Positions 3,858-17,945 of a stretch of 26,300 nucleotides of DNA are shown here, piece by piece. The translations under genes and the position numbers were made by a program. This DNA is from a virus (taxonomy: Duplodnaviria > Caudoviricetes). The notes under the pieces were generated by a model. That model worked only from the letters and a program-made list of their open reading frames with translations, was not told the origin of the DNA and made no database searches. The stretch lies in IMG/VR virus record IMGVR_UViG_3300032227_000624, positions 1 through 26,300 of that record. The stretch is one strand, 5' to 3'. Position 1 is the first letter of the stretch. Every line of letters starts with the position of its first letter.

Positions 3858-4174
3858 GCAGTACCGCCGCTGAGGCTGTCAGCGTAGGCTGTGATCAACG
3901 CACGCACCACGTAGGGATCGTCGCAAATCTCTTTTTGTGACTTAGCAGTAAAAGGAATTTCCTTACCTGCCTCGTCAAAAATGCCCTCCCAGCCTTCAAG
4001 GATACCCTCGATCAAAGCATCGTCACCCTTGTCAACCAAGTCGTTGAAACTTGATCGACTCATCTTGCGAAAGATTGCATCAAACGTAGTCTTTTCAAAC
4101 TTGCCGCCATCGATGGGTGTTTCCACCGCGACGGGCCATTTGTAAGATGCAACCTTTTTGAGAACGAATGCCAT
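3848..4174 (-). CDS. Tail assembly chaperone (gpG-like)
   Basis: 108 aa between tail tube and tape measure; ends ..AKN* on a slippery heptamer. Confidence 0.88.
   Translation of the reverse strand: MAFVLKKVASYKWPVAVETPIDGGKFEKTTFDAIFRKMSRSSFNDLVDKGDDALIEGILEGWEGIFDEAGKEIPFTAKSQKEICDDPYVVRALITAYADSLSGGTAKN
3851..3857 (-). other. -1 ribosomal frameshift site A AAA AAC
   Basis: GCA AAA AAC TAG fits X XXY YYZ just before the G stop; the -1 frame stays open to the tape measure start. Confidence 0.85.
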
Positions 4175-4180
4175 GCAGAA

Positions 4181-5122
4181 TCAGGTGAAAACTAGGCTCA
4201 CCTCATTATTGCCTGCTGTGGTGGGAAGTGCCAAGTACGGCATGGACAGCGAGACAACGCCGTTGGTGTCGCCGTAGCTGCAACCAGTGATGTCGGTTTG
4301 GGGTGCGTTCAACGTGACAATGTTGCCAGCAACAGTGCCAAGCACAATGCTGGTTGCTGCGGTTGCAGGAGCAACGGCCTTGGCAAAGAAATCAGTGGTG
4401 CCAACGGCAGGCGCTTCGACCACTGCTGTGCCACCAGCGGCACGGTCAGTAATCAGCACTTCTTGGCTGGAACCGGTTTCCTTGTAAAGAAGTGTGTTGT
4501 TCAGAGCCAGGTCAATGCTTTCAAGGCGAGTGCTTGTAACGCCGTGGAATGTGCAGGTGGTGACGTTGGTGTCGTTGACTTCCAGTGCAGCAGCTTGGTT
4601 GGCAACCGTAAAGCTGCCACTAATAGCTGTGCCATCAGGAGCGTTGTAGATCCCGATGAACTGGAAGCTGGCGGTGGGAAACTGCCCAGCCGTCATGTTG
4701 AAAGTCACCGTGCCACGGGCACCAGTGATCTTGTGGCGAGTGCCGTCGTAGAAGCAGTACAAGGAAGCACTAGAGAAGCTGGAGCTGACGCCTGCGTAGG
4801 TAACAGATGTGCTGCTTACAACCACTTCGCTCATGCCAGCAGCTTGAAGCAGCGGACCAAAAGCAGGTGCAGTGCCAGCCGTTCCAGAACCACCCAGTTC
4901 AACTTCAAAAGTTACCGAAACCCGCTTGTTGGCAACCAACGTTCCACGGGTGCTGTTACCAATGAAGCCTTGGTATGACGCCGCCTGAACGTTGTCTGAC
5001 TCGATAGGAGTCACCTCAAGATTGGTGACCTGAATGGCATTGCTACCACCAACAGGAAGTGAATCCGTCCCGTAGGTAGCCTCAATCTTCGCGAGCAGAA
5101 ACTTCTTCCGTGTCAGAGCCAT
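4181..5122 (-). CDS. Major tail tube protein
   Basis: 313 aa Thr/Ser/Gly-rich beta protein (LAKIEATYGTD, GSGTAGTAPAFGPLL, HKITGARG); position before the chaperones. Confidence 0.88.
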   Translation of the reverse strand: MALTRKKFLLAKIEATYGTDSLPVGGSNAIQVTNLEVTPIESDNVQAASYQGFIGNSTRGTLVANKRVSVTFEVELGGSGTAGTAPAFGPLLQAAGMSEVVVSSTSVTYAGVSSSFSSASLYCFYDGTRHKITGARGTVTFNMTAGQFPTASFQFIGIYNAPDGTAISGSFTVANQAAALEVNDTNVTTCTFHGVTSTRLESIDLALNNTLLYKETGSSQEVLITDRAAGGTAVVEAPAVGTTDFFAKAVAPATAATSIVLGTVAGNIVTLNAPQTDITGCSYGDTNGVVSLSMPYLALPTTAGNNEVSLVFT

Positions 5123-5234
5123 TGTTCTGTAAAGCAGGAGTGGTTGTAGTCAGTGTAAGCTTCCCAGTCTTAGGGTCGTACAGATAGCTGCCGCCCACTC
5201 CAGGATTAGGGATTTCCTTCTCAATCTTAGCCAT
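5082..5234 (-). CDS. Small hypothetical protein (50 aa), below ORF-track cutoff
   Basis: MAKIEKEIPNPGVGGSYLYDPKTGKLTL..ARED*; starts 4 nt after the upstream stop and fills the gap before the tail tube gene. Confidence 0.7.
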   Translation of the reverse strand: MAKIEKEIPNPGVGGSYLYDPKTGKLTLTTTTPALQNNGSDTEEVSARED

Positions 5235-5238
5235 GGTG

Positions 5239-5664
5239 CTAGGCCGAAGTTAGGTTGGTGCGACTTGTGCGGTATCGCACCAAGAAGTCTTGCGTAATCA
5301 TACCGACAGGAATATCAGCTTCGTACATTGCAAAGTCTGTGCGGTCGGGCAGCAGGTCAAGCGCGTAGCCATTCAACGTCTGATCAGCCATCAGCAATGC
5401 GTGAACTTGCTGGGAGTATGTGTCTGAAGTGTCGTCTGGCGTTGCGGCCCGGACAAAGGTGGTGACCCGCACCCGCATCGTCCAGTCAAGCTTGTCGTAA
5501 AAGCTAGTGCCAATCGGGTTGTCGTTGACCGGCTCGACAATGACAGCAGGCACTTCAGAGCGCGACAGCGGCTCCACACGGCTGCGGTAAACCGTTGCCC
5601 CAGTAATTGCGTCAAGGTTGGTCTTGATGCGGCTCAGGATCAATTCGCGGCGGGTGTCAGCCAT
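5239..5664 (-). CDS. Tail terminator/completion protein (gpU-like)
   Basis: TRRELIL..VYRSRVEPL..PAV..VHALLMAD..LNG..VRYRT pattern; upstream of tail tube. Confidence 0.75.
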   Translation of the reverse strand: MADTRRELILSRIKTNLDAITGATVYRSRVEPLSRSEVPAVIVEPVNDNPIGTSFYDKLDWTMRVRVTTFVRAATPDDTSDTYSQQVHALLMADQTLNGYALDLLPDRTDFAMYEADIPVGMITQDFLVRYRTSRTNLTSA

Positions 5665-5942
5665 TACGTTTTCTGCAATGCAATCTGAACAAACGCCCCG
5701 TCATCAATCAACATTGTCTCCCGAACAGTAAAAGCAGTCCCGCCCACAGTGATTGAACCACCGCGAACGAGACTGCCAAAATCTGAAGATCTAGCTGTCA
5801 GCGTGTAGTCGGTCGTTAAAACCATCCCATCGCTGATTACCTGGCTGGGAGTATCCAGAATTCCAGATGCCGTAACGGCGCCAGCCACGCAGGTGACGCC
5901 AAAATCGGCAAGGAACATCCCTAGATCTTCAGTTAACGCCAT
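5664..5942 (-). CDS. Head-tail joining protein (gpFII-like head closure)
   Basis: 92 aa, FLADFG..GILD..G..ITV.G..F.V..DDG; synteny. Confidence 0.75.
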   Translation of the reverse strand: MALTEDLGMFLADFGVTCVAGAVTASGILDTPSQVISDGMVLTTDYTLTARSSDFGSLVRGGSITVGGTAFTVRETMLIDDGAFVQIALQKT

Positions 5943-5947
5943 GGCGA

Positions 5948-6328
5948 TTAGCCGTACTTGGCAGAAGCCAGACCTTGAACAGACAGAGCGCCTGTACCAG
6001 TACCACCAGCAACAGTCAGCGAAACTTTGACGAAACGCTTAATGTCGGTGACATTGACATACAGCTTCTGGCGAGAAGCAGTGTTGGCGGTTGTGGTCGT
6101 AAAAGCACCGCCGGTGACGTCGGTGTAGGTACCACCAGAAGTGTCAGAGCTGGTCAGCTTGACAGCAAAGGTGATGCTGGCGCCACCGGCAGCAGCGTCA
6201 AGAAGAACGACCATGTCGCCTTCGTAGCCTTGCAAATCAATGGCGCTACCAGTGGTGGTAGAAGCACCAACGGCAGTAGGGAACAGAGCGATTTGGGTTG
6301 TTTTAGTCCCAAGGTTAAGGACGGTCAT
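5948..6328 (-). CDS. Putative capsid decoration/virion structural protein
   Basis: Thr/Gly-rich beta protein (TGSAIDLQGYE..SDTSGGTYTDV..KRFVKV) two genes downstream of capsid. Confidence 0.65.
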   Translation of the reverse strand: MTVLNLGTKTTQIALFPTAVGASTTTGSAIDLQGYEGDMVVLLDAAAGGASITFAVKLTSSDTSGGTYTDVTGGAFTTTTANTASRQKLYVNVTDIKRFVKVSLTVAGGTGTGALSVQGLASAKYG

Positions 6329-6516
6329 TGTGGTTTCCTCCGTTTGGAAGGTGTAGGTGTGGTCTTAACTAGCTCTTTAACCGGAGCCTCGGTAATTTGT
6401 TCAGCCTTACCAATACCAATCAGAAGTCTGGCGTCGTCAGGGGATGCCTCAATGACATCCCCCATACGAACCACGCAACCGCCGGCGATTGTTTGCCTAA
6501 GGATGCGAATCTTCAT
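6325..6516 (-). CDS. Small head-module hypothetical protein
   Basis: 63 aa, GDVIEA..DARLLIGIGKA with a basic tail; tightly coupled to capsid and next gene. Confidence 0.75.
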   Translation of the reverse strand: MKIRILRQTIAGGCVVRMGDVIEASPDDARLLIGIGKAEQITEAPVKELVKTTPTPSKRRKPQ

Positions 6517-6518
6517 GA

Positions 6519-8951
6519 TCAGAGAGTGTTGTTACCACGGCTGAAGGATTCAGGATGACGGATGGCCACGTCAACATCCTGCATTGCAACCACGCGAACG
6601 GTGCCGCTGGTGCTGTTGGTGTAAGGGTCCACCATGATGTCCAGACCGGACCAGTAACCAATCAGCAGGTCTGCAAAATTGCCGAACCAAAGATCGCCAG
6701 AAGCAACTTGATTGGACAGCACACCGCGATAACCGTTGACTTCACCGCCTTCCATCAGGAAGATGCCGGAGCCGGCATCCTTCTTGGTGGTCTTCAGATT
6801 GCCGCGCATTGCAGCGTTCATCAGATAAACAGGTGAACCCAGCAAGGCGTTGGCAGTAGCCACGTCGGATTCCATGGCAACCACTTCTGCAAAAGTGGGA
6901 GCATCAGCGGCGAAGTCTTCAGTGCCGATTCCGGTGGTGTTCTTCAGACCTAAAGGCTCACTGTTGGAACCAGTGCCGTAAAGACCAGCGGCGTCAATTT
7001 TCAAACCAAGGACGGCAGCAAGATCACGGCGAACCATGTTCTCGATGTCGATCGAAGACTGAAGCATCAGGCGGCGGCTGTAATCAGTAAAAGCAGCAAC
7101 CGTCTTGGGAGTCAGGCTGACCTGATCCACGGTCTGCTGGCTCTCGGTAGGAGCGCCAGACTCGGCAACCCAGTAAGCGGTAGCAGCACCTGATTGACGG
7201 GGAATTGCAACGTTGCCCACCAGGCCGGTCAGCACGGTGGCGCCAGCCTGATCAAGGGCAGAAGCGTTGCGAAGCAGGTCAATAAAGGAAGCAGAGTCCA
7301 GTTCGGTAGCGACCAGGTTGCCACCGGCGGTAGCTACGCCAACGCTCAGGTCGCGGCGAAGCACTTCCTGGGGAATGGTGATGCCACGGCTTTGACGGCC
7401 AAGCTTGGCGGCAGCAGCTTCGGAAGCTTCAATTTCAAAGCCAGCAGCTTCACGCGCTTGGCGATCAGCAGGGTTGGCCAGGTAGTTGATGGCGCGAAGG
7501 AAAGAGAAAGACCGGGTCTCCTCTTTGGAAAGGCCGATGTCGGCGACTGTGGTGTCCACAGGCTGGGCGGGAGTGCTCATTTTTTCAAGAAGTGCAGTGC
7601 GCAGCTCATCAAGACCACGGGAATTCGCAATGAACTCCTGGGCCATGTCGCTGTTGTTGGTGCGATTGCCTAAAGCAATCATTTCGGAAAGCTCCTTTGC
7701 CTTGGCCTGTGCGGCCTCAGCGCGGATCGCCTCCATGTCGAAGGTGGGTTCCACGGGTTTTGACTCCGAGAGAGGTGAATTGGTCACGGCTGAGGCCGTA
7801 GTTGAACTCTCACTAATAGTAAGAGTTCGACCTATGCCTACTGATTGATCAGCAGGCACGGTCACCAGCGAGATTTCAAACGGTTGGTATGACGTAGCGC
7901 GGTACGTGATTGGGTCAGTGCTGTTGTCTGTTTCCATCGAGTTAATTCTGTATCCAAAGCTGACATTCCGGAGAATGCCGTCTTTGATTAATTCCTGCAT
8001 CTCACGACCAAGGTCGTTGTTGGCCATCTTGACCTTGGCATAGCCGCGTTTGTCTTTGATGTAGGCACGCTCGACAACGCCAACGATCCGATCAGGATCA
8101 TGTTGGAACAGCAGCGGGGCGCCATCGTTCAGGCGGCTGAGGTCCATGGCGCTCTCATCCATGCTCAGCACTTCCATGCCGAAATAACGCTCGACAGGTG
8201 CTTCGGATGCAAAAGGAAACTCAATCGTGCGCTCTTCACCAGCAGCACGAAAATCAGTCATCAGCGCACGCTGGAAAGATTCGCCCTGAATTTTGCGCAC
8301 TTCCTCTTCGGATCGTTCAATGGTTGCAGCTTCAAAACTGATCGCATTGAAATCATGGTCAGTCAACCATTTGCGCGCTTCGGCAGGAGAAAACCGATCC
8401 GCGTCAAAACGAATGGCTTGGATTTCAGACGTGCCATCTTTAATGCCGTAAATAAAATCAACACCTTCGCCGCCTTCATTGTTTACGCGACGAATTGAGT
8501 CGTACTGCTCAGGTTCTTTCAAACGAGCGGCGTGCTCATTGGGATATGGACGCTCTTCAACAGTTGGCTCCATAGATCGCTCCTGTGCTTTTTTGATGGC
8601 AGATGATTTCATGGCGCTCCACGATTGTCCGGCGTCGCCGCCCCATGCCGCCCATGCTACCCGGCCAGGGGAGGGATAGCTGTCACCATTACTAAATCCC
8701 TCGCCTTGTTTATCAACTTCGTGGCGAGCAAACCATGCGTTCATTTCGATTGCAACGGCAGGCGACAACTCTTTGCCAGACAAGATTTGGTTTGCGCGAC
8801 TAGCGGCAACATCCGTGCCGCCTGGTCTGCCATCCGCTTTCCAATCTTTGTAGCGCTGCGCCTCAGTCCTCATGCCCTCAGTTGGCATCAGGTTAATTTC
8901 GCTATCACCTACCTTTGCGCGTTTGGCGAGCTCTCGAAAATACCTGCTCAT
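6519..8951 (-). CDS. Fused prohead protease-scaffold-major capsid protein (HK97 fold) with two extra N-terminal domains
   Basis: HK97-type protease motifs LLFQHD, RNVSFGY, EISLVTVPAD; capsid motifs AGGNLV, IPRQSG..AYWVAE, LTPKT, FGNFADL, RHPESF. Confidence 0.94.
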   Translation of the reverse strand: MSRYFRELAKRAKVGDSEINLMPTEGMRTEAQRYKDWKADGRPGGTDVAASRANQILSGKELSPAVAIEMNAWFARHEVDKQGEGFSNGDSYPSPGRVAWAAWGGDAGQSWSAMKSSAIKKAQERSMEPTVEERPYPNEHAARLKEPEQYDSIRRVNNEGGEGVDFIYGIKDGTSEIQAIRFDADRFSPAEARKWLTDHDFNAISFEAATIERSEEEVRKIQGESFQRALMTDFRAAGEERTIEFPFASEAPVERYFGMEVLSMDESAMDLSRLNDGAPLLFQHDPDRIVGVVERAYIKDKRGYAKVKMANNDLGREMQELIKDGILRNVSFGYRINSMETDNSTDPITYRATSYQPFEISLVTVPADQSVGIGRTLTISESSTTASAVTNSPLSESKPVEPTFDMEAIRAEAAQAKAKELSEMIALGNRTNNSDMAQEFIANSRGLDELRTALLEKMSTPAQPVDTTVADIGLSKEETRSFSFLRAINYLANPADRQAREAAGFEIEASEAAAAKLGRQSRGITIPQEVLRRDLSVGVATAGGNLVATELDSASFIDLLRNASALDQAGATVLTGLVGNVAIPRQSGAATAYWVAESGAPTESQQTVDQVSLTPKTVAAFTDYSRRLMLQSSIDIENMVRRDLAAVLGLKIDAAGLYGTGSNSEPLGLKNTTGIGTEDFAADAPTFAEVVAMESDVATANALLGSPVYLMNAAMRGNLKTTKKDAGSGIFLMEGGEVNGYRGVLSNQVASGDLWFGNFADLLIGYWSGLDIMVDPYTNSTSGTVRVVAMQDVDVAIRHPESFSRGNNTL

Positions 8952-10507
8952 GAATCTAGTTCCTCAACCTCATCGCCTTCCAGATTATCGGGTTCAGCGG
9001 TATCTTCTGCTTCTTGGGGTTGCTGCTGGCCAGATCCACTGACCTGACTGGGATCACTATCAAGCACAATGCCAAGTTCATCAGCCAATGCCAGCTCATG
9101 GGCCCGCTGACGCATCTGTTCCTCAAAATCACCGCCATGCAAGGCGATGACTTGCGAAAGAGTCATGATGCCATTACGGATCAATGACTTGTAAGCATCG
9201 GCTTCCTTCTGTGGGTCTACAAATTGAGCGGCAGGGGGAATCCACTTGGACTCCTCATAACGCTCAGGGTCGATTTCGTAGCCAGGCAAATTCAAAACGC
9301 CTGCCATAACAGCCATTTCCAACCAACGCTCGTAGACCCGCTCACACAATGCTTCAACCAAATACTGCTGCAAAGTTTTGTAATGCGTCCGCGTTTCCAG
9401 CAGCTCAAGCCGTGAAGAGCTGTAATTGCTCTTGCTGAAGTCAGAACTGACTTGGGTATAGGAGCAGCCAACACCCGAAGCAACGGCACGAAGCATCTGC
9501 GCCACAAAAGGCGTAAACGCATCGTCAGGCCGGTTGGGCGAGAAGAATTGCATCTCCTCTCCAGGTGCCAAACGACGGATTGAACCGGGAGAAAAATCAA
9601 GAACGGAATCATCCTGAAACTTGCCGTCCTCAAACAGCTCCTGGTCTGGCGTGCGCACAAACGCCATCATTGCTGACGATGCCCGTGCAGCCACAATCTC
9701 AGCCTCCTCGTAACCACTCAGGTTGCGGAGACGCATAATCGCTGAGGCAAATCCTGTGACACCACGGGTCTGGCCGGGGCGCTCGATGGAATACAAATGA
9801 ATGACATCCTTGGCAGGGATGCGTTGTCGCCTCTTGGCTACAGCCGCAGTGCCGGTGAATTGATAATCACCAGGGTGGGTGCGCAGGAAGTGATAAGCAA
9901 CTGGACGGCCCCACTCGTTAATCTCAACGCCCATGCGGACACGGTTGCCGTTTGCTTCGACACCGGTGTAATCGTCATCAAGCAAATCGGCTTCAAGCAC
10001 CTCAAGGCCAAGGGGGACCTTGCTGTCACCGAAAGTTTGGTTGACCAGACGAATAAAAACCTCGCCTGATTCGATCATTGACGTGATGGATAGCCGCTGA
10101 ATGTCCTGCCAGCTCAATTGGCCAGCAACGTGGCAGGTATCAGCACACGTCCAGTCATCCCATGCTTTTTCAATCAACCGGTTGATCCGATCATCAAGCT
10201 TACCGCCACGCTGGAATTGAACCTGCGCTTGGTGCTTAATCCCAGTGCCAACCACGTTGTTGCGCACAGCTCTCAACGCCGCCTTGGCAAAGTCAGAATC
10301 ACGAACCAACTGGCGAGCGCGATTTCGAAGCAGCCTGAGGCTATTTTTGATTTCACTGTCGGCACTTGTGCCAAGACTGATCCAATCAGATGTAAGTCGA
10401 TTGCTTGCAACGGCTGCATATGCACGCTTGAGATTTGCGTTGCGCTCTTGCGCTTTGCGTAGATCTTTTTGAACGCGTGAAACGCGACCGAAACCAAAGA
10501 AAGCCAT
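8948..10507 (-). CDS. Portal protein, lambda family
   Basis: LRNRARQL, VVGTGI, GVEINEWGRPVAY, RPGQTRGV, NYSSSR, VDPQKE motifs. Confidence 0.96.
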   Translation of the reverse strand: MAFFGFGRVSRVQKDLRKAQERNANLKRAYAAVASNRLTSDWISLGTSADSEIKNSLRLLRNRARQLVRDSDFAKAALRAVRNNVVGTGIKHQAQVQFQRGGKLDDRINRLIEKAWDDWTCADTCHVAGQLSWQDIQRLSITSMIESGEVFIRLVNQTFGDSKVPLGLEVLEADLLDDDYTGVEANGNRVRMGVEINEWGRPVAYHFLRTHPGDYQFTGTAAVAKRRQRIPAKDVIHLYSIERPGQTRGVTGFASAIMRLRNLSGYEEAEIVAARASSAMMAFVRTPDQELFEDGKFQDDSVLDFSPGSIRRLAPGEEMQFFSPNRPDDAFTPFVAQMLRAVASGVGCSYTQVSSDFSKSNYSSSRLELLETRTHYKTLQQYLVEALCERVYERWLEMAVMAGVLNLPGYEIDPERYEESKWIPPAAQFVDPQKEADAYKSLIRNGIMTLSQVIALHGGDFEEQMRQRAHELALADELGIVLDSDPSQVSGSGQQQPQEAEDTAEPDNLEGDEVEELDS

Positions 10508-11085
10508 TAGGTGAACCTCACGCGAGCAACGCCAGGGTTGCCAAGTCCCTGCCTAATCTTTTCAGCTCTTCGCTCCCTGTCAACTTCAGCCTTGAGCACA
10601 TCACGTAATTGCAACAGCTCAGGCATCTTGTAACGCTTGAGGCTGCGGTTACCGATCGTGTATTCCTGGACCGCGCCACCCTGCGCCAAGGTGCGGATGG
10701 CGGCTTCCACAAAGCCAAGATCGATCTCAGCGCGGGAACGGTCATCAAACGCACCCGGTGTGCCGGTGTAAGCGGCGCTGGCCTTGACGGTGAATTGGCC
10801 GCGACCTGCGGTGTATTGCAGTGCTCCAGAAGAGGCAACAGCCTGCCAGGTCCACGTGTCAGCGTTAAAGCCAAGCGTTGTAGACGCTGGCACCGTCACC
10901 CGCCAGCCCGTGCTTTGAGCAGTGCCAACAATCGTGGCGCCCTCGGTCGAAGTATTGGTTCTCGCGTACCAAGTCAGCGTGTAGGTGCTGCTCTGAATGC
11001 TGGTGCCAATTGAATCCGTAAACTCAGGCACGTCAAAAACAACCGTGTCCCCGGCGTAAATCAGTTCTGGAACAAGGATGGTCAC
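10507..11085 (-). CDS. Head completion protein, gpW-like C-terminus with extra N-terminal beta domain
   Basis: Between terL and portal; C-terminal EAAI..GGAVQEYTIGNRSLKRY..ELLQLR. Confidence 0.75.
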   Translation of the reverse strand: MTILVPELIYAGDTVVFDVPEFTDSIGTSIQSSTYTLTWYARTNTSTEGATIVGTAQSTGWRVTVPASTTLGFNADTWTWQAVASSGALQYTAGRGQFTVKASAAYTGTPGAFDDRSRAEIDLGFVEAAIRTLAQGGAVQEYTIGNRSLKRYKMPELLQLRDVLKAEVDRERRAEKIRQGLGNPGVARVRFT

Positions 11086-12986
11086 CAGTTTGTTACGAAT
11101 GATGAAGAGGCGCGGGCCTTACGCTGTCGTTGCGGCCGATACGGAGATTCTATCGGTATTGGCTCTGATTTTTTAGTCTTGACAGGCTCAGCGTCCAGCT
11201 TACGCGCAAACTGCTCAAAAATTGTGGTTCGGTTAAATCGCATGTACAAATAATTCAACGCCGCAAACGAATACACAAAACAATCCAGCGCCTCGTTGCG
11301 ATCGCCTGCCTTCTTCTTCCATTCGCGAATGGCGAACCCCTTGACGTACCGCACCACCTGCCGTTCAGCCGTCAATTGCTTGAAATACTCCAGGCCAGCC
11401 TCGGCATGAAAATGGATGTAACCCGGCCCTGGCTCGTTGTGCTTCATCCGGCCAAACAGCGTGGTCTTGATCGTGTCGCTACCGACCGGAAACACCTCCG
11501 CTGAATTCTTGAGCACTTTTCCCTTGTAGTTAATATCCACCTTGGAAGGCTTCCCAATAGGCGGTTTGTTACGGACCGACTGCCCCTTCAAAGCAAATAC
11601 ACCATCACCGCGACGGCTGCGGGCGTAAGCGTAAACCTCTGAGGTGAAGTGACCTCCAGAGTCAATGCCAACAGCCGAAATGCGGGTAGACCCACCACCT
11701 TCCCTTGGATAGTCCCTTAGTACGAGGTCATCAACTTGCTCCCACAACTTGCCACTTGCTGGATCGCCGTAAACCTCCCCGTGGCTGATCAGCCAGCACT
11801 CTTCACCAGCGCCCCATGCATAAATGCCAACGGCCACGCGGTTGTCTTGCACGTCAACGCCAGCAGTGACGATCGACGCATCCCGCGGGATTTCACTGGC
11901 CGGGTAGAACTCGGCACGCTCAGCCAAGCCTTCAGCGCCAAGCTTTGCCCCGACTTCTTCCTCCCACGTCTCGCCAAGCACGGTGTTGACAAAAGTTTTG
12001 AGCAGCGGCGCATCATTCTTGCTGCGCAAAAACTCAATGACAATCTCCTCCCAGCTCTTCCAGCCAAGTGGGGAGTACAGCGAGGACAGGTGAAACCCAA
12101 CGGTACGCGGGTCTTCACTCGTCGCAGTTGCCCGCCATTCACCCTTGCGTAACATCTCCGACTTGAAGTGCTCTGGGATGTGGGCGCCACAGCTTTCGCA
12201 CACGTAAGCAGTGGTTTTTGGGTCGCCATCGCGCCACTGCAAATTTTTCCACTGCAACCACTGCTTGTGCTCACAATGTGGGCACGGCACAAAGAAGCGG
12301 CGCTGATCGCTAGCCAAATACTCAGTCTCAATCCGAGACATGTCTTTGACAGTTGGCGTTGAGGTCAGGATAATCTTTCGACGACTGAAAGTGGATGCAC
12401 GACGTTCAGCCAATGCACAAGGGTCTCCCTCGCCTTCAACGTCGGATGGGAAAGCATCCACCTCATCCAGCAATACCCACCGGCAAGGAGCAGAGCGAAG
12501 ACCAGTAGCGCTGTTTGCACCAGTAAGAAGCAGGATCCCCCCAGGGAACTCCTTGCTAAACATTGTGTTTCCACTATCCCGACTCCTGGCTGGCGCGATC
12601 TTATCCGCAAGGCATGGCGTCTCATGAATCAATGAGTCCAACCGCTGTTTACTGAGACGTTTGGCCATCTCGATTGTGGGTTGTACAAATAACGCCGGGC
12701 CAGGCGCGTGCGCAATCATGTATCCCACCACGTTGTTGATTGCCTCGGTCTTACCCAACTGCGCACCAGCCATGAACACCACCTTCTGCGTGGTGTTGTT
12801 AGCGGACATGCAGTCCATGATTTCGCGAAGGTAAGGCGTGCGATCAGTACGCCACGGCCCAGGCTCTGCTGATGCCTTGTTGGACAGCATCCTGTACAAG
12901 TCCGACCATTCGCTAACCGTCAGGTCGGGGTCAGGCTTCAAGCCATTAAGAAACGCCTGCTTGTAAATCTGGGCACCATCACGCAT
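11082..12986 (-). CDS. terL: Terminase large subunit, lambda GpA family
   Basis: RTPYLREIMD, Walker A AQLGKTE, Walker B LLDEVD, STPT, CPHC/CESC, GVDVQ, IDSGG, RNEALDC. Confidence 0.98.
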   Translation of the reverse strand: MRDGAQIYKQAFLNGLKPDPDLTVSEWSDLYRMLSNKASAEPGPWRTDRTPYLREIMDCMSANNTTQKVVFMAGAQLGKTEAINNVVGYMIAHAPGPALFVQPTIEMAKRLSKQRLDSLIHETPCLADKIAPARSRDSGNTMFSKEFPGGILLLTGANSATGLRSAPCRWVLLDEVDAFPSDVEGEGDPCALAERRASTFSRRKIILTSTPTVKDMSRIETEYLASDQRRFFVPCPHCEHKQWLQWKNLQWRDGDPKTTAYVCESCGAHIPEHFKSEMLRKGEWRATATSEDPRTVGFHLSSLYSPLGWKSWEEIVIEFLRSKNDAPLLKTFVNTVLGETWEEEVGAKLGAEGLAERAEFYPASEIPRDASIVTAGVDVQDNRVAVGIYAWGAGEECWLISHGEVYGDPASGKLWEQVDDLVLRDYPREGGGSTRISAVGIDSGGHFTSEVYAYARSRRGDGVFALKGQSVRNKPPIGKPSKVDINYKGKVLKNSAEVFPVGSDTIKTTLFGRMKHNEPGPGYIHFHAEAGLEYFKQLTAERQVVRYVKGFAIREWKKKAGDRNEALDCFVYSFAALNYLYMRFNRTTIFEQFARKLDAEPVKTKKSEPIPIESPYRPQRQRKARASSSFVTNW

Positions 12987-13461
12987 CGGTCAACCTCTCC
13001 AGTGCCTTGCGGATCTCTTCACTCAAATTCTTGTGGATAATCACCGGGTCGCTTTCGGCAGCCATTTGGTTTGAGACTCGATCTGGAATGGTGTTCAACG
13101 CATCACGGACGCTGCGGGCCACAGTAAACGCCTCGCGCTCCACGCGGCTGGCTTCCACCAACTGCTCCTCCTTTGTCTCAAGCTCAAGCCGTGCCAACTC
13201 GGCGCGAAAATGCTCAGACTTGGCCTTGCTTTCGTTAAAAGTCGGAATGTCCAGCGCAGAACTGGCTACCCGATCAGGTGAGATTGATGTGCTGGGATTG
13301 GCGTTCTTGTACGCCTCTACAGCCTTCTCTTCGTCCCACAGGATTCGGTTGCGTTGAACCGTGAAACATCCTGCAAAACGGCCTTCTGTCTTGAGCTGAG
13401 AGATGCGGCCAATGGTGATCCCAAGCGTTTGGGACAGCTTTTTAGTTGAAACAGGCTCCAT
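12979..13461 (-). CDS. terS: Terminase small subunit, Nu1-like
   Basis: N-terminal HTH (LSQTLGITIGRISQL) and coiled coil ..AELARLELE..LV..VRDALNTIPDR; overlaps terL start. Confidence 0.9.
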   Translation of the reverse strand: MEPVSTKKLSQTLGITIGRISQLKTEGRFAGCFTVQRNRILWDEEKAVEAYKNANPSTSISPDRVASSALDIPTFNESKAKSEHFRAELARLELETKEEQLVEASRVEREAFTVARSVRDALNTIPDRVSNQMAAESDPVIIHKNLSEEIRKALERLTDA

Positions 13462-13542: not shown

Positions 13543-13664
13543 GTCTCAAATGCGTCTCAAATGCGTCTCAGGTTGAGACTCATGTGCGCCTGACGCTAGC
13601 GTTGTAAGGCGGTTTGAAATTACCCACACGCTTATTGCGAAAAAGGACCCGCAAATGAGACGCA
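13543..13664. repeat. GTCTCA(AATGC) repeats, candidate TerS-binding (cosB-like) sites
   Basis: GTCTCA at 13543, 13554, 13565 (11-bp period); inverted TGAGAC at 13574 and TGAGACGCA at 13656. Confidence 0.7.
13611..13650 (-). other. Putative cos site (cosQ plus cosN)
   Basis: Minus strand CGGGTCCTTT matches lambda cosQ GGGTCCT (13650-13644), followed 18 nt later by GGGTAATTTCAAACC; about 150 bp upstream of terS. Confidence 0.65.
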
Positions 13665-13742: not shown

Positions 13743-13758
13743 GAGAACAATTGTTCTC
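13743..13758. promoter_or_regulatory. Perfect 16-bp palindromic operator, LexA-box-like
   Basis: GAGAACAATTGTTCTC (GAAC-N4-GTTC core) at the predicted transcription start. Confidence 0.55.
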
Positions 13759-13780
13759 TCTATCTCGTTACTGGTTCACT

Positions 13781-13942
13781 ATGTCACTCTATCAAATGTT
13801 CAAGGCTCAGCATGAAGAACTAGGACGCTCGATTGATGAATACAATTCAACAGTTGAGCGTATACTTAACCGCACCGATCGTTTACTTAAGCAATTGCAG
13901 ACAATGAACGAGGAGGAGTTAAGTCTATTGCGCAAGCGGTAA
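13781..13942 (+). CDS. Small coiled-coil-like hypothetical protein (53 aa)
   Basis: MSLYQMFKAQHEELGRSIDEYNSTVERILNRTDRLLKQLQ..; has its own promoter and terminator; ATG 13781 preferred to TTG 13751. Confidence 0.7.
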   Translation: MSLYQMFKAQHEELGRSIDEYNSTVERILNRTDRLLKQLQTMNEEELSLLRKR

Positions 13943-13953
13943 GTAACAACAGC

Positions 13954-13978
13954 GGGGGCCAATCGGCCCCCTTTTTTT
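13954..13978 (+). terminator. Rho-independent terminator
   Basis: GGGGGCC-AATC-GGCCCCC followed by T7. Confidence 0.9.
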
Positions 13979-13985
13979 ATGCAAT

Positions 13986-14009
13986 AAAAAACCCCACCTA
14001 ATGGCGGGG
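13986..14009 (-). terminator. Rho-independent terminator for the island operon
   Basis: Minus strand CCCCGCC-ATTA-GGTGGGG followed by T6. Confidence 0.85.
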
Positions 14010-14029
14010 CGATGATATCGGCGAAGCGA

Positions 14030-15103
14030 TTAGATGGCCAGGGTGATAACCCCATCCGGTAGGGCAATCGATTTAGCGAAGGGCAGGATAAAACCGGCCA
14101 CGTTTGGATCGGCGCCCCGTGATCGCTTGCCCCTAAGAATTACAGCCACGCCATTAGGGTCAGCCCATCGATGATCGGTAGCATCCCCATCAATGGCCGG
14201 AAGTGTGACCGATCGGCCGCCGTAGTGCAGCGTTACGGTCGCGGGGATAGGCGCGCCCTTAGCAATGGCAATGGGCACAGCCAGGCGGAACCCGGCATCA
14301 ATGGCGGCCATGGCATCCCGCGCGGCCGTGGCACGATCACCGGCAAGGGATGCAGTGACATCCCAGCCGGCCGCCCATTGCGCGCGCAATCCCAACGGCC
14401 CATCCGTTGGCGCTTTGCTGTATTCATACAGTTTCACGCTTCCATCCGCCACGGCCGGGGCGAGAATCTGGGCGATCGTTTGATTCTCACCGTTGGCAAT
14501 CAGCAGGCCAAAGCGGCGCCGGATTGTGACCGCCTCGACCAGGGTGACCGATACGGCCAAGCGGTGCCATGGCTGATCGTCAGTCCCCCGTAGGCGACAT
14601 GCCAAAGGCAGACCGTCAAGCTGGGCCCGTTGCCATTGGCGGGCAATCGCCCATAGGACGGCCCGGCCGTAGGTTTCCGGTTGGTCGATCATGGCTAAGG
14701 TTCGGCGCCCCCTACAGGCCGCGACATCGGCAGACAGGCCGCCATGGCCGGCCCATGTCAAACATGCATCAGAGCAACCGGCGGTTGCCCATGGGCAAGC
14801 GTTATGGCGGCGCGCCTTATCCGTCAGGCCGAGCGCCTCGCATCGGGCGGCCAAGGTTGGCAGATAGGCGCGCGGCGCAACGGTCGCCCCGTTGCCCGGA
14901 TTGATTGCCGCAGCCAAGGCGCGGCCTGGCAGGGTGTGATGAATCACGGCGCGCGCGATCGCGGCACCCTTAGCAAGCTTCGGATTGGAATCCGTCAAGA
15001 CGTCCGCCAACTCGAGACCGTGGCGCTTCAGATAGGCGGCGACATCGGATGGGAGGCGCAGGGCGCCATTAGCGCGTGAGGCGCCGGTCAGTGTGGATTG
15101 CAT
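14030..15103 (-). CDS. GP88-like protein, possible radical-SAM-like Fe-S protein
   Basis: SNPKLAK, CPWATAGCSDACL (Cx6Cx3C), RLRGTDD, YEYSK, IDGDATDHRWADP..LRGK motifs. Confidence 0.7.
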   Translation of the reverse strand: MQSTLTGASRANGALRLPSDVAAYLKRHGLELADVLTDSNPKLAKGAAIARAVIHHTLPGRALAAAINPGNGATVAPRAYLPTLAARCEALGLTDKARRHNACPWATAGCSDACLTWAGHGGLSADVAACRGRRTLAMIDQPETYGRAVLWAIARQWQRAQLDGLPLACRLRGTDDQPWHRLAVSVTLVEAVTIRRRFGLLIANGENQTIAQILAPAVADGSVKLYEYSKAPTDGPLGLRAQWAAGWDVTASLAGDRATAARDAMAAIDAGFRLAVPIAIAKGAPIPATVTLHYGGRSVTLPAIDGDATDHRWADPNGVAVILRGKRSRGADPNVAGFILPFAKSIALPDGVITLAI

Positions 15104-15117
15104 CGGATGGGATGGGA

Positions 15118-15273
15118 TTAATTGAACGGGTCTAGGTCACAATCCGGCTCGTCTGCATCCGCCACGCCCTGCCAGTAGGCGAGGGCGGCGAGGTCATAAA
15201 GGGCCAGGGATTGGTCGTCGTCGTCGATCGGGTCAGACAAGCGGCCGTAGCCGTCTAGATAAAGGCGCGCCAT
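15118..15273 (-). CDS. Small very acidic protein (51 aa), below ORF-track cutoff
   Basis: MARLYLDGYGRLSDPIDDDDQSLALYDLAALAYWQGVADADEPDCDLDPFN*; TGATG coupling with the upstream ORF; stop abuts the leader of the next gene. Confidence 0.7.
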   Translation of the reverse strand: MARLYLDGYGRLSDPIDDDDQSLALYDLAALAYWQGVADADEPDCDLDPFN

Positions 15274-15434
15274 CAGCGGCCGGAAGCCGTCAGGGCGCAG
15301 TCAGAAAAGGAGCGGCCGGCGGATTGGCAACGCTCCATAAAAAAGGCGGTCTCAGCCTGCAGGCCGGCCAACGCCCAAAAGGAGAGGGCGACGGCGGCCG
15401 CAACTGAAAACCACGTAACTCGGGATGAATGCAT
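15273..15434 (-). CDS. Small membrane/secreted protein (53 aa), below ORF-track cutoff
   Basis: MHSSRVTWFSVAAAVALSFWALAGLQAETAFFMERCQSAGRSFSDCALTASGR*; hydrophobic N-terminus, Cys pair, conserved leader upstream. Confidence 0.7.
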   Translation of the reverse strand: MHSSRVTWFSVAAAVALSFWALAGLQAETAFFMERCQSAGRSFSDCALTASGR

Positions 15435-16081
15435 GGAATGGATGCGATGGGATAAAACGACCGGGGCGGCCGTTGGGAGAATCCTCTCAGTTATCCGGGA
15501 GGATCCTGGGACAAGTGTACCGCCTCGCGGATTGGCACAGCGTCAGGCGGCAATGGCCAGGGCGATCAGTTGCGCCTTAGGCAGCTTGCGCCGGCACCCG
15601 GTAAGGGCGCGCAACTGCGCGCAGGTAAGGGCGCCAAGGTCGGCAGCGATCACGGCGGCCGGATGCGACATAGGCGGCACCACGGCGGCCGAGGCGATCG
15701 GGGCGACGGCGGCGCTGTAACGGCGGCCGAGGGCGGCCGATGCATCGATCAGACCGCGGCGCGCCATTACGGCGGCCACGTAGGCGGCGACCGCCAGAAC
15801 CTTCAAGCAATCAAAAACGACACCGGCCACGAGCCGCCAATCGATTAAGCGAAGAACGGCGGCCGTGAAATGGATGACCGGCCAGGCAATACGGCCAATG
15901 AAACGGCCGGCCGTATACGTGCCGCGGATGGCACGGGCCAAGGTATCCAGCGACCAGAGGATGGCGCCGGCCGTGATCAATTCACCGGCTGCGGCCCATA
16001 GGCGCGCGGCCATCAATAGGAAGTGTTCGGCGCCTTGTAGGGCGGTAAGAGTGTGAATCATTGGAATGGATGCGATGGGAT
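15434..16081 (-). repeat. Repeated 20-nt gene leader ATCCCATCGCATCCATTCCA
   Basis: Exact copies at 15434-15453 and 16062-16081 at start codons; related ATCCCATCCCATCCG before ATG 15103. Confidence 0.85.
15543..16061 (-). CDS. Hydrophobic hypothetical protein with C-terminal Rho_N/HEH-like motif
   Basis: Start set at ATG 16061 after the conserved leader; C-terminal LGALTCAQLRALTG..LPKAQLIALA. Confidence 0.7.
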   Translation of the reverse strand: MIHTLTALQGAEHFLLMAARLWAAAGELITAGAILWSLDTLARAIRGTYTAGRFIGRIAWPVIHFTAAVLRLIDWRLVAGVVFDCLKVLAVAAYVAAVMARRGLIDASAALGRRYSAAVAPIASAAVVPPMSHPAAVIAADLGALTCAQLRALTGCRRKLPKAQLIALAIAA

Positions 16082-16282
16082 GGGATTTCATTAGCTAACG
16101 GGGGCGCATACGGCCGCGCGCGTTAGCTGATCAAGTCTGCCAATCATCCGGCCGTGATTCTGCAGACTGTAATAAAACTTTATAAAGCGCCGTACTGGTA
16201 GCGCGTGGCCAGTTTGGCAATCCGGACCCGTTGCTATGGGCACATAGGGGGCGGCGATGGTGGGCGGGCCGATCAATGGCAG

Positions 16283-16400
16283 GTGCTGCAGATTGCAGCA
16301 TTGCGGCCGTTGTGCTGCAGATAGCGGCATAGCGCACCTATGTGCTGCGCAGTGCTGCAGATAGGCGCGGCATGCGGCGCAGTGCTGCAGTGTGCTGCAG
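16283..16400. repeat. GTGCTGCAG direct repeats in 10-bp phase
   Basis: Copies at 16283, 16312, 16342 (variant), 16352, 16382, 16392. Confidence 0.9.
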
Positions 16401-16432
16401 TAGTACAAATGTACTATAGTACAACAATACTA
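16401..16432. promoter_or_regulatory. Cyanobacterial LexA (SOS) box plus adjacent degenerate copy
   Basis: TAGTACAAATGTACTA fits AGTAC-N4-GTACT; immediately followed by TAGTACAACAATACTA. Confidence 0.7.
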
Positions 16433-16476
16433 TTTAAATGTATTACAGCAAAAACACAACTTTTACAAAACGCCCT

Positions 16477-16615
16477 TAAACCGACCTTGCCGTGTATGCA
16501 AGCACACGCATGTGTGAAAACGCCCTAAACCGACCCCCCGCAAGTCCCTCGGCATTTTTTGCCCCCCTTAAACCGACCCCTTGCAAGACCCTAAACCGAC
16601 CAGCCGCAAGACCCT
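16477..16615. repeat. TAAACCGACC(-N4-GCAAGWCCCT) direct repeats
   Basis: TAAACCGACC at 16477, 16526, 16569, 16592; GCAAGWCCCT at 16540, 16583, 16606. Confidence 0.9.
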
Positions 16616-17674: not shown

Positions 17675-17945
17675 TGTAACGGTGGTGTAACGGTAGGCGT
17701 TACACCTGAAACCCGTTGGCAGCAAAGGGATTTTTGGGATTTGTTGCGTTGTAACGTCTATTTCTAAATAGAGATATATATATATAGGGGGTTGTGAGAG
17801 AGGGTGTGTGAGAGAGGGTGTGTGTGTGTGAGAGAGAGGCTATGTTTTGGGAAAAACCGTTACAACGTTACAGATCGCTAAGATCGGTTGCAGCGCAGTG
17901 GTTTTCAGCTGTAACGCCCCCCGTTACAAGCCGTCAATTTGTAAC
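17675..17945. other. Putative replication origin: TGTAAC/GTTACA iterons around an AT-rich core
   Basis: Hexamers at 17675, 17686, 17699, 17750, 17859, 17867, 17910, 17923, 17940; TA run at about 17774-17786; directly downstream of primase-helicase. Confidence 0.8.

Follow-up and report, generated by a model that had tools for sequence, protein, structure and literature searches.

A terminal cassette depleted of A..T pairs at the spacing of Type I restriction sites in a putative cyanobacterial siphovirus

Avoidance of Type I restriction sites in the DNA that enters a cell first has been described for the early-injected region of Murciavirus in relation to Mme2I (PMC12455610). According to the available text of that report, Type I sites are of consequence solely in the DNA that enters first, early proteins presumably protect what follows and the region is variable. 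A genome-wide survey, again as far as its available text goes, detected no avoidance of Type I or IIG sites by phages and, for Type I sites, gave specificities that change too fast as the reason (PMC6286503). Here, we describe a 2.4 kb cassette in a stretch of viral DNA (Caudoviricetes) comprising positions 1–26,300 of IMG/VR record IMGVR_UViG_3300032227_000624; the window below means this whole stretch of 26,300 nucleotides. The cassette resembles the Murciavirus region in each of these respects, but whereas a single named motif in T7-like podoviruses is concerned there, here we find a motif-independent loss of adenines followed on the same strand by a thymine 7–10 positions downstream (A-N6-9-T; A..T pairs hereafter) in a cos siphovirus, with a reshaping of both base composition and proteins. 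We consider it probable that the cassette was depleted of these pairs as first-entering DNA under selection against Type I (and Type IIB) sites of any specificity. A cluster of the hexamer CGGCCG, to which an initial annotation of the window had drawn attention, is genuine, yet it is only one local manifestation of a cassette with about 40% fewer A..T pairs than expected by chance.

The depleted zone occupies positions 13750–16150, with observed/expected (O/E) ratios of 0.54, 0.48, 0.60 and 0.79 for A..T pairs at distances 7–10 and a guanine-plus-cytosine (GC) content of 63–65% from about position 14000. The GC-rich island of the window contains 191 such pairs, compared with 308–311 in shuffles preserving 2-, 4- or 5-mers (the lowest of 900 shuffles gave 261), while the reverse order, T..A, is near normal (282 versus 308). 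Sixty loci encoding GP88, the family of one cassette gene, were retrieved; with the window added and redundancy removed, 36 islands were left, and 28 of these had flanks long enough for comparison. The islands form GC-rich tracts with sharp borders, about 2–4 kb long and frequently found at a contig end. Under synonymous permutation of 28 non-redundant GP88 genes, the A..T ratios at distances 7, 8, 9 and 10 are 0.62, 0.69, 0.80 and 0.84, flanked by 0.98 at distance 6 and 1.01 at distance 11; the control pairs stay close to expectation (T..A, 0.91–1.01; G–C, 0.98–1.01), distance 7 is below expectation in all 28 genes and genes outside the islands give 0.96–1.00. The gap is strand-polar and survives codon-preserving nulls. 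In all ten whole related records, the genome-wide A..T minimum sits on the island, including one (G001) in which a DUF7227 gene takes the place of GP88; the gap recurs at the corresponding position of relatives whose cassette genes are unrelated. Among relatives of the large terminase subunit (TerL) for which upstream DNA was available, 15 of 17 have ratios of 0.54–0.84. The initial annotation had pointed to the terminal regions of related phages: islands do recur there, but ten of the 35 islands with at least ten GGCC contain no CGGCCG, and it is the A..T gap that is conserved.

The gap matches the geometry in which Type I and Type IIB restriction sites place their two target adenines. The A–T distance is 7–8 in 45 of 48 bipartite sites taken from the REBASE list shipped with Biopython, and the available texts place the target adenines 9 apart for Mme2I (PMC12455610) and 8 apart for a Type I site of Synechocystis (PMC6560206). 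Because the loss of words is partly an amino-acid shift (islands encode 2.4% Glu versus 6.3%, and 19.7% Ala versus 9.9%), proteins were held fixed in the site tests. Under this constraint, the 48 bipartite sites have an O/E of 0.54 in island genes and 1.02 outside, and changing their spacers by −2 to +2 gives 0.99, 0.91, 0.54, 0.58 and 0.72 in island genes. Nearly every adenine context is depleted, TAG being the exception. The words GAAG, AAGA and GAGC are lower in the island than outside in 28 of 28 cases and GGAG in 27 of 28, and word avoidance is strand-symmetric (Spearman 0.55–0.58). Of the 121 genomes examined from the likely host family, 62 carry HsdS. The gap and the loss of bipartite sites are the strongest evidence that we have, and one option raised initially, that CGGCCG is a by-product of avoiding other sites, fits them.

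The window holds 23 copies of CGGCCG, of which 21 start within 14214–16304 and the others at 2637 and 11133; this recount agrees with the initial annotation in number and in every listed position. The GC content of the cluster (14214–16309) is 64.0%, for which base composition predicts 2.2 copies, in place of the values of about 68% and 3–4 copies given earlier. Seventeen copies lie inside four minus-strand open reading frames (ORFs), read as NCG-GCC-G (ten) or C-GGC-CG (seven), and four lie outside ORFs. The excess withstands a codon-preserving null, with 6.9 ± 2.2 copies expected under synonymous permutation against the 17 observed (none of 2000 permutations reached 17), as well as shuffles keeping 2-, 3- and 4-mers, which give 3.7, 8.3 and 9.6 copies against 21 (none of 1000 each). 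It vanishes when 5-mers are kept (20.3 copies). Similarly, if each flank of GGCC takes its C independently, 20.5 copies are predicted in the window; across the 35 islands this half-site model expects 288 copies and 242 are observed, with a single island (L093) above expectation (20 versus 15.1). Spacing within the cluster is irregular (4–578 nucleotides) and shows no phasing, and among six close relatives synonymous positions within the sites are conserved in 77 of 103 cases (0.75), compared with 612 of 881 (0.69) elsewhere. We therefore reject CGGCCG as a selected hexameric unit, its parts predicting 20.3–20.5 of the 21 copies with neither phasing nor extra conservation.

The same results weigh against the earlier proposal that the hexamer is a selected signal or a binding track for a protein that assists DNA entry, which we did not uphold; to the binding track, and to the notion that the hexamer is a phosphorothioation target, we give hardly any credence. 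The cluster is indeed located at the genome end, and nine of the 42 site-ends continue as CC, resembling a Streptomyces Dnd consensus. A binding track, however, would sit poorly with the absence of any excess over half-sites, and the terminal-slot cassettes of two relatives (L010 and L085; a different cassette of 46–49% GC) hold no CGGCCG although L010 is 93% identical across the head genes and L085 is 90% identical on both flanks. As to phosphorothioation, dndC was not found in the 121 host-family genomes searched. Two entire related records of 68.5 and 56.3 kb also have no CGGCCG.

Alanine makes up 21% of the codons in the window island versus 11% elsewhere, and ten of the 17 coding sites fall at junctions of another residue with Ala. 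Since the cassette is also exchangeable between relatives, one might attribute the hexamers to Ala-rich proteins or, as the initial annotation envisaged, to a GC-rich donor. This is extremely unlikely: the excess survives synonymous permutation, homologous GP88 genes use opposite dialects, and 20 stretches of 20 kb (38–72% GC), drawn from 17 genomes in the probable host family, have CGGCCG at 0–1.27 times expectation, with at most nine per 2.1 kb, and no A..T dip. A donor origin among such genomes is accordingly rejected.

Vocabulary varies between islands. In CG-poor islands GGCC is abundant and CGGCCG is missing, while CG-rich islands hold GGCC almost only as CGGCCG and have GGCC at or below expectation (O/E 0.5–1.0). 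Seven islands (L098, L110, L111, L120, L121, L132 and L134) use the CG-rich dialect, with GCGC and CGCG at 27–45 per kb and many alternating (CG)n runs, which could favour Z-DNA; outside those islands CGCGCG and GCGCGC are strongly avoided. In one TerL relative (L033), no GGCC occurs in the 6 kb profiled (4001–10000, island included) or in TerL, and an A..T dip of 0.68 is present. In the window, GCGCGC is also shifted (13 in the island versus one outside), and further words change (ApT 1.89, GAG 0.34, GGAG 0.22). Palindromic 6-mers across the islands stand at 1.06 of 3-mer shuffles versus 0.84 outside, which amounts to a release from palindrome avoidance and not to its reversal. Inverted repeats whose loops measure 1–10 are at about 1.0 of 3-mer shuffles, and selection for hairpins or RNA structure was rejected on this basis.

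With proteins fixed, the two highest 4-mers in island genes are GATC (1.81) and GGCC (1.75); CGATCG occurs 110 times against 54 expected, and each of the three words is higher in 24 of 28 islands. As far as the available texts go, all three are targets of orphan methylases that are widespread in cyanobacteria (PMC6105098, PMC6560206), whereas the accessible portion of a preprint (bioRxiv 10.64898/2026.10.20.760421) contains nothing on picocyanobacteria. Besides avoidance, the cassette might thus positively hold orphan-methyltransferase targets (GGm4CC, Gm6ATC, m5CGATCG), either as self-marking of virion DNA or to occupy host enzymes, with CGGCCG as the form of GGCC that this lineage tolerates. 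The 6–10 CGGCCG that simulations of avoidance leave unaccounted for would be in keeping with such a role, but we regard it as rather unlikely. Adenines beside GGCC or CGGCCG are no better tolerated in A..T pairs (0.30–0.58 versus about 0.5), those adjacent to GATC hardly so (0.61 versus 0.56), and the overlap of real asymmetric sites with GGCC does not exceed that of control words; both tests of a shielding of restriction sites by GGCC marks being negative, that variant was rejected. The low GGCC ratios of CG-rich islands also speak against self-marking, and host DNA is itself rich in GATC and GGCC. A C5 methylase was absent from all ten related records searched, and no methylase was seen among 139 ORFs scanned in three of them; adenine and N4 types were thus covered in these three records, and of its own genome the window's record lacks about a third.

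The cassette adjoins the cos end of the genome on the last-packaged side. Lambda-like small and large terminase subunits (11082–13461, minus strand) orient this end, which lies at 13624–13652 (minus strand). Left-end contigs of relatives begin at window position 13624, the matching base being the contig start in three of four aligned relatives, and many contigs of relatives begin 640–650 nucleotides before TerL, which bears out the description of the island as cos-proximal. A conserved GCGGGTCC at 13645–13652 resembles lambda cosQ. The contig ends of relatives together with the terminase orientation place the island at the last-packaged end, and by last-in-first-out reasoning this end would enter the cell first. 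On one side the window carries genes for terminase, portal, capsid and tail, opposite those for primase, helicase, exonuclease VIII and RecT; it is part of a lambda-like siphovirus. The presence of RecT and exonuclease VIII raises a further explanation, in which biased repair or gene conversion at a recombinogenic end creates a GC- and palindrome-rich tract without any selection on words. The same has been proposed for highly iterated palindrome (HIP) sequences, whose over-represented palindromes are, in the available text, a possible by-product of methyl-directed repair (PMC4390886), and the word dialects do vary between lineages. We judge this very unlikely, however, given that the GC step is sharp and tracks the transcription unit, the DNA closer to the end being AT-rich, that a local mutational bias would not yield a polar gap at 7–10 bases and that the same-slot cassettes of L010 and L085 are of low GC content.

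The best cultured matches of the capsid protein are the Synechococcus phages S-CBS3, S-CBS1 and S-LBS1 (51–53%), and an exact cyanobacterial LexA box, following the consensus in the available text of PMC3091678, is found upstream of the cassette at 16402–16415, with a one-mismatch neighbour at 16418–16431. On these two grounds the host is likely to be a picocyanobacterium, in line with the cyanobacterial setting implied earlier. One exact and three one-mismatch boxes surround the cassette, including those at 13744–13757 and 15508–15521, and an exact box lies just upstream of 16 of 33 islands, compared with 0.027 per kb elsewhere, some of them in arrays of four or five. A scan of GTDB gave no close prophage, the best matches being 63% (a Synechococcus metagenome-assembled genome, MAG) and 62% (a Planctomycetota MAG).

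The cassette runs from the LexA box through three small ORFs and the GP88-family gene to a terminator at 13991–14010. All four genes are on the minus strand: a 172-residue Ala-rich ORF (15543–16061) that holds eight CGGCCG and whose start is assigned from a leader motif, a 53-residue ORF without a family (15273–15434) that is kept in close relatives, a 51-residue ORF without a family (15118–15273) that is partly replaced in them, and GP88 (14030–15103; 357 residues, Ala-rich). The C-terminus of the 172-residue ORF (15543–15640) gave only a sub-threshold match to the Pfam ALTTAQ repeat; it resembles a small helical nucleic-acid-binding module akin to Rho-N. A C-rich leader, ATCCCATC(C/G)CATC, precedes three island starts on the minus strand (15106–15118, 15441–15453 and 16069–16086); it has four matches versus 0.05 expected and is retained in close relatives, and the leaders before the island start codons show no Shine–Dalgarno-like purines. 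No sigma-70 promoter was seen upstream of the cassette. Back-to-back terminator-like hairpins (13954–14010) close the cassette (hairpin at 13991–14010, minus strand) and a convergent small ORF (hairpin at 13954–13971, plus strand). The small ORF at 13751–13942 (plus strand), between the cassette and the end, has normal GC content yet is low in A..T pairs at distances 7–9 (0.49 over 13751–14050). Arrays of short direct repeats lie just upstream of the cassette, of GTGCTGCAG type at 16283–16404 and of CCCTAAACCGACC in four copies at 16473–16601, and low-complexity ATAT, GAGA and GTGT runs occupy 17770–17840, between a 64-residue ORF and the end of the primase gene.

The GP88 assignment (PF17338) rests on a Pfam match of 36.8 bits (cutoff 24.4; 0.98 in the atlas), and the predicted fold is confident, with a predicted local distance difference test (pLDDT) value of 87.7. 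Radical S-adenosylmethionine (SAM) enzymes fill 14 of the 15 top structural matches from VIA, the best having a Z score of 6.2 and an r.m.s.d. (root-mean-square deviation) of 5.9 over 209 aligned residues, a score that, as the tool cautions, may reflect a common fold arrangement. The invariant cysteines Cys103, Cys110 and Cys114 are spaced CX6CX3C, compared with CX3CX2C in radical SAM enzymes. Foldseek gave no match for GP88 at an E value of 0.001, searches of PDB sequences and NCBIfam gave nothing, and no cultured phage matches the window protein at 1e-5. The predicted model is weakly radical-SAM-like. The SAM lyase of T3 is reportedly a SAM-consuming precedent, and by analogy a SAM-consuming role for GP88 may serve as a lead. 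In P-SSP7, gene 1 encodes a homologue of the DUF7227 protein of G001, at the position held by Ocr in T7, and homologues occur in the early region of T7-like cyanophages (L242:4962–5639 in S-SRP01; L290:1079–1816 in P-SSP7). In L010 and L085, which are among the nearest relatives, the slot (L010:8781–9230 and L085:5231–5800) instead encodes an acidic protein of 149 residues, from a family of 748 representatives with a median net excess of 21. Compared with T7 Ocr, the L010 protein (8781–9230) gives a weak profile E value of 0.46–0.48 over Ocr residues 13–113 and an hhalign probability of 17.9, and one of 81 family members matches PF08684 at 4e-4, so that the replacement protein appears weakly Ocr-like in sequence.

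These observations lead us to propose the following scheme. Hosts would carry many Type I systems of changing specificity, and a phage that meets them could avoid only the geometry that all share. As the first DNA in the cell, the cassette would be purged generically of bipartite sites; loss of A and T would raise its GC content, make its proteins Ala-rich and narrow its vocabulary, and each lineage would settle on its own short words, here CGGCC, a preference that the palindrome CGGCCG would double. On DNA that has just been injected, the LexA box would leave the cassette free from repression, and the cassette product, whether a radical-SAM-like GP88 or an acidic Ocr-like protein, would disable SAM-dependent restriction enzymes, so that the rest of the genome would need no purge. 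A more far-reaching version can be entertained only as a doubtful conjecture: a two-part evasion module against all Type I enzymes at the entry end of freshwater cyanosiphoviruses, comprising DNA scrubbed of A-N6-9-T and bearing host-methylated GGCC-core words, and a GP88 that is a new radical-SAM-derived enzyme destroying or sequestering SAM and interchangeable with a distant Ocr, in which case the gapped statistic alone would map entry ends and anti-restriction genes in any phage.

Several points weigh against selection on first-entering DNA as the explanation. Resampling that penalises both A..T pairs and asymmetric sites produces at most 5.6 of the 17 coding CGGCCG with genome codon usage and 7–11 with island codon usage, so avoidance does not fully explain the hexamer. 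CGGCCG is mildly low in 12 genes outside the island (two versus 7.6 expected, p = 0.02), and palindromic 6-mers, though avoided outside, number 96 in the window island compared with 66–73 in 3- and 4-mer shuffles. With proteins fixed, three classes of contiguous asymmetric REBASE sites are weakly depleted (p = 0.005, 0.069 and 0.11). In two of the 17 TerL relatives, L010 and L066, the dip is absent from the 2.1 kb tested. The available text of PMC10287942 has either lambda end leaving first in vitro. The anti-restriction activity is suggested by weak likenesses (Z of 6.2; E of 0.46), and the explanation draws on the likely host family rather than on one strain.

If selection on first-entering DNA is correct, this phage group appears to avoid the geometry common to all Type I sites within one cassette of 2–4 kb, remodelling its proteins in the process, and the CGGCCG hexamer itself matters less than was first supposed. 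The A..T statistic needs no knowledge of host motifs and could therefore locate the entry end of uncultured phages; it could also shortlist anti-restriction genes, starting with the widespread GP88 family, which has no assigned function. Our search of the accessible literature found no paper on a motif-free A-N6-9-T gap or on the function of GP88.

The locus can be set beside several known systems. With the genome-wide survey (PMC6286503; available text) it shares low palindromic 6-mers, at 0.73–0.84 outside the cassette; it differs in showing a local avoidance of Type I geometry and, within the cassette, a release from palindrome avoidance. The leading regions of plasmids are likewise first-entering DNA of raised GC content, but according to the available text their motifs are not consistently depleted and their codons are better adapted to the host (PMC13478746), whereas this island shows strong gapped depletion and makes greater use of CAA, TTT and GAT than other parts of the genome do. 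HIP1 and alternative HIPs of cyanobacteria resemble CGGCCG as GC-rich palindromes with a methylase core at about ninefold over base expectation, although they are genome-wide and whole-word, while CGGCCG is confined to 2 kb, with two in the other 24 kb, and is explained by its 5-mer half; the hexamer was not found in the main text of that report, as available (PMC4390886). In the cyanophages S-CBS1 and S-CBS3, as here, a shared 'minor tail' gene is the final one ahead of the end, but their records and that of S-LBS1 lack a cassette of this kind as well as any sharp local dip, and two of the three encode DNA methylases. Parallels in architecture are the gene 0.3 (Ocr) region of T7 with its SAM lyase counterpart in T3, and the first-step-transfer DNA of T5, which share a terminal early cassette and an A..T dip, the slot here also encoding candidate anti-Type I proteins. 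The dip is much deeper here (0.5–0.6, compared with 0.85–0.92 in T7 and 0.82–0.90 in T5), and palindromic 6-mers stand at 2.1 in this island versus 0.2–0.9 in those phages. Among other entry ends, S-SRP01 has a milder dip of 0.77, its minimum (0.77–0.79) falling at the DUF7227 homologue, the lambda right end gives 0.90–0.96 and P-SSP7 shows no polar dip. Staged injection belongs to the T7 and T5 side of the comparison, the present case being known from sequence, and GP88 is not a known Ocr or SAM lyase family. Avoidance of Type I sites in first-injected DNA was thus already known for a named motif, to judge from the available text of PMC12455610; what this cassette adds is avoidance of the geometry itself, free of any motif.

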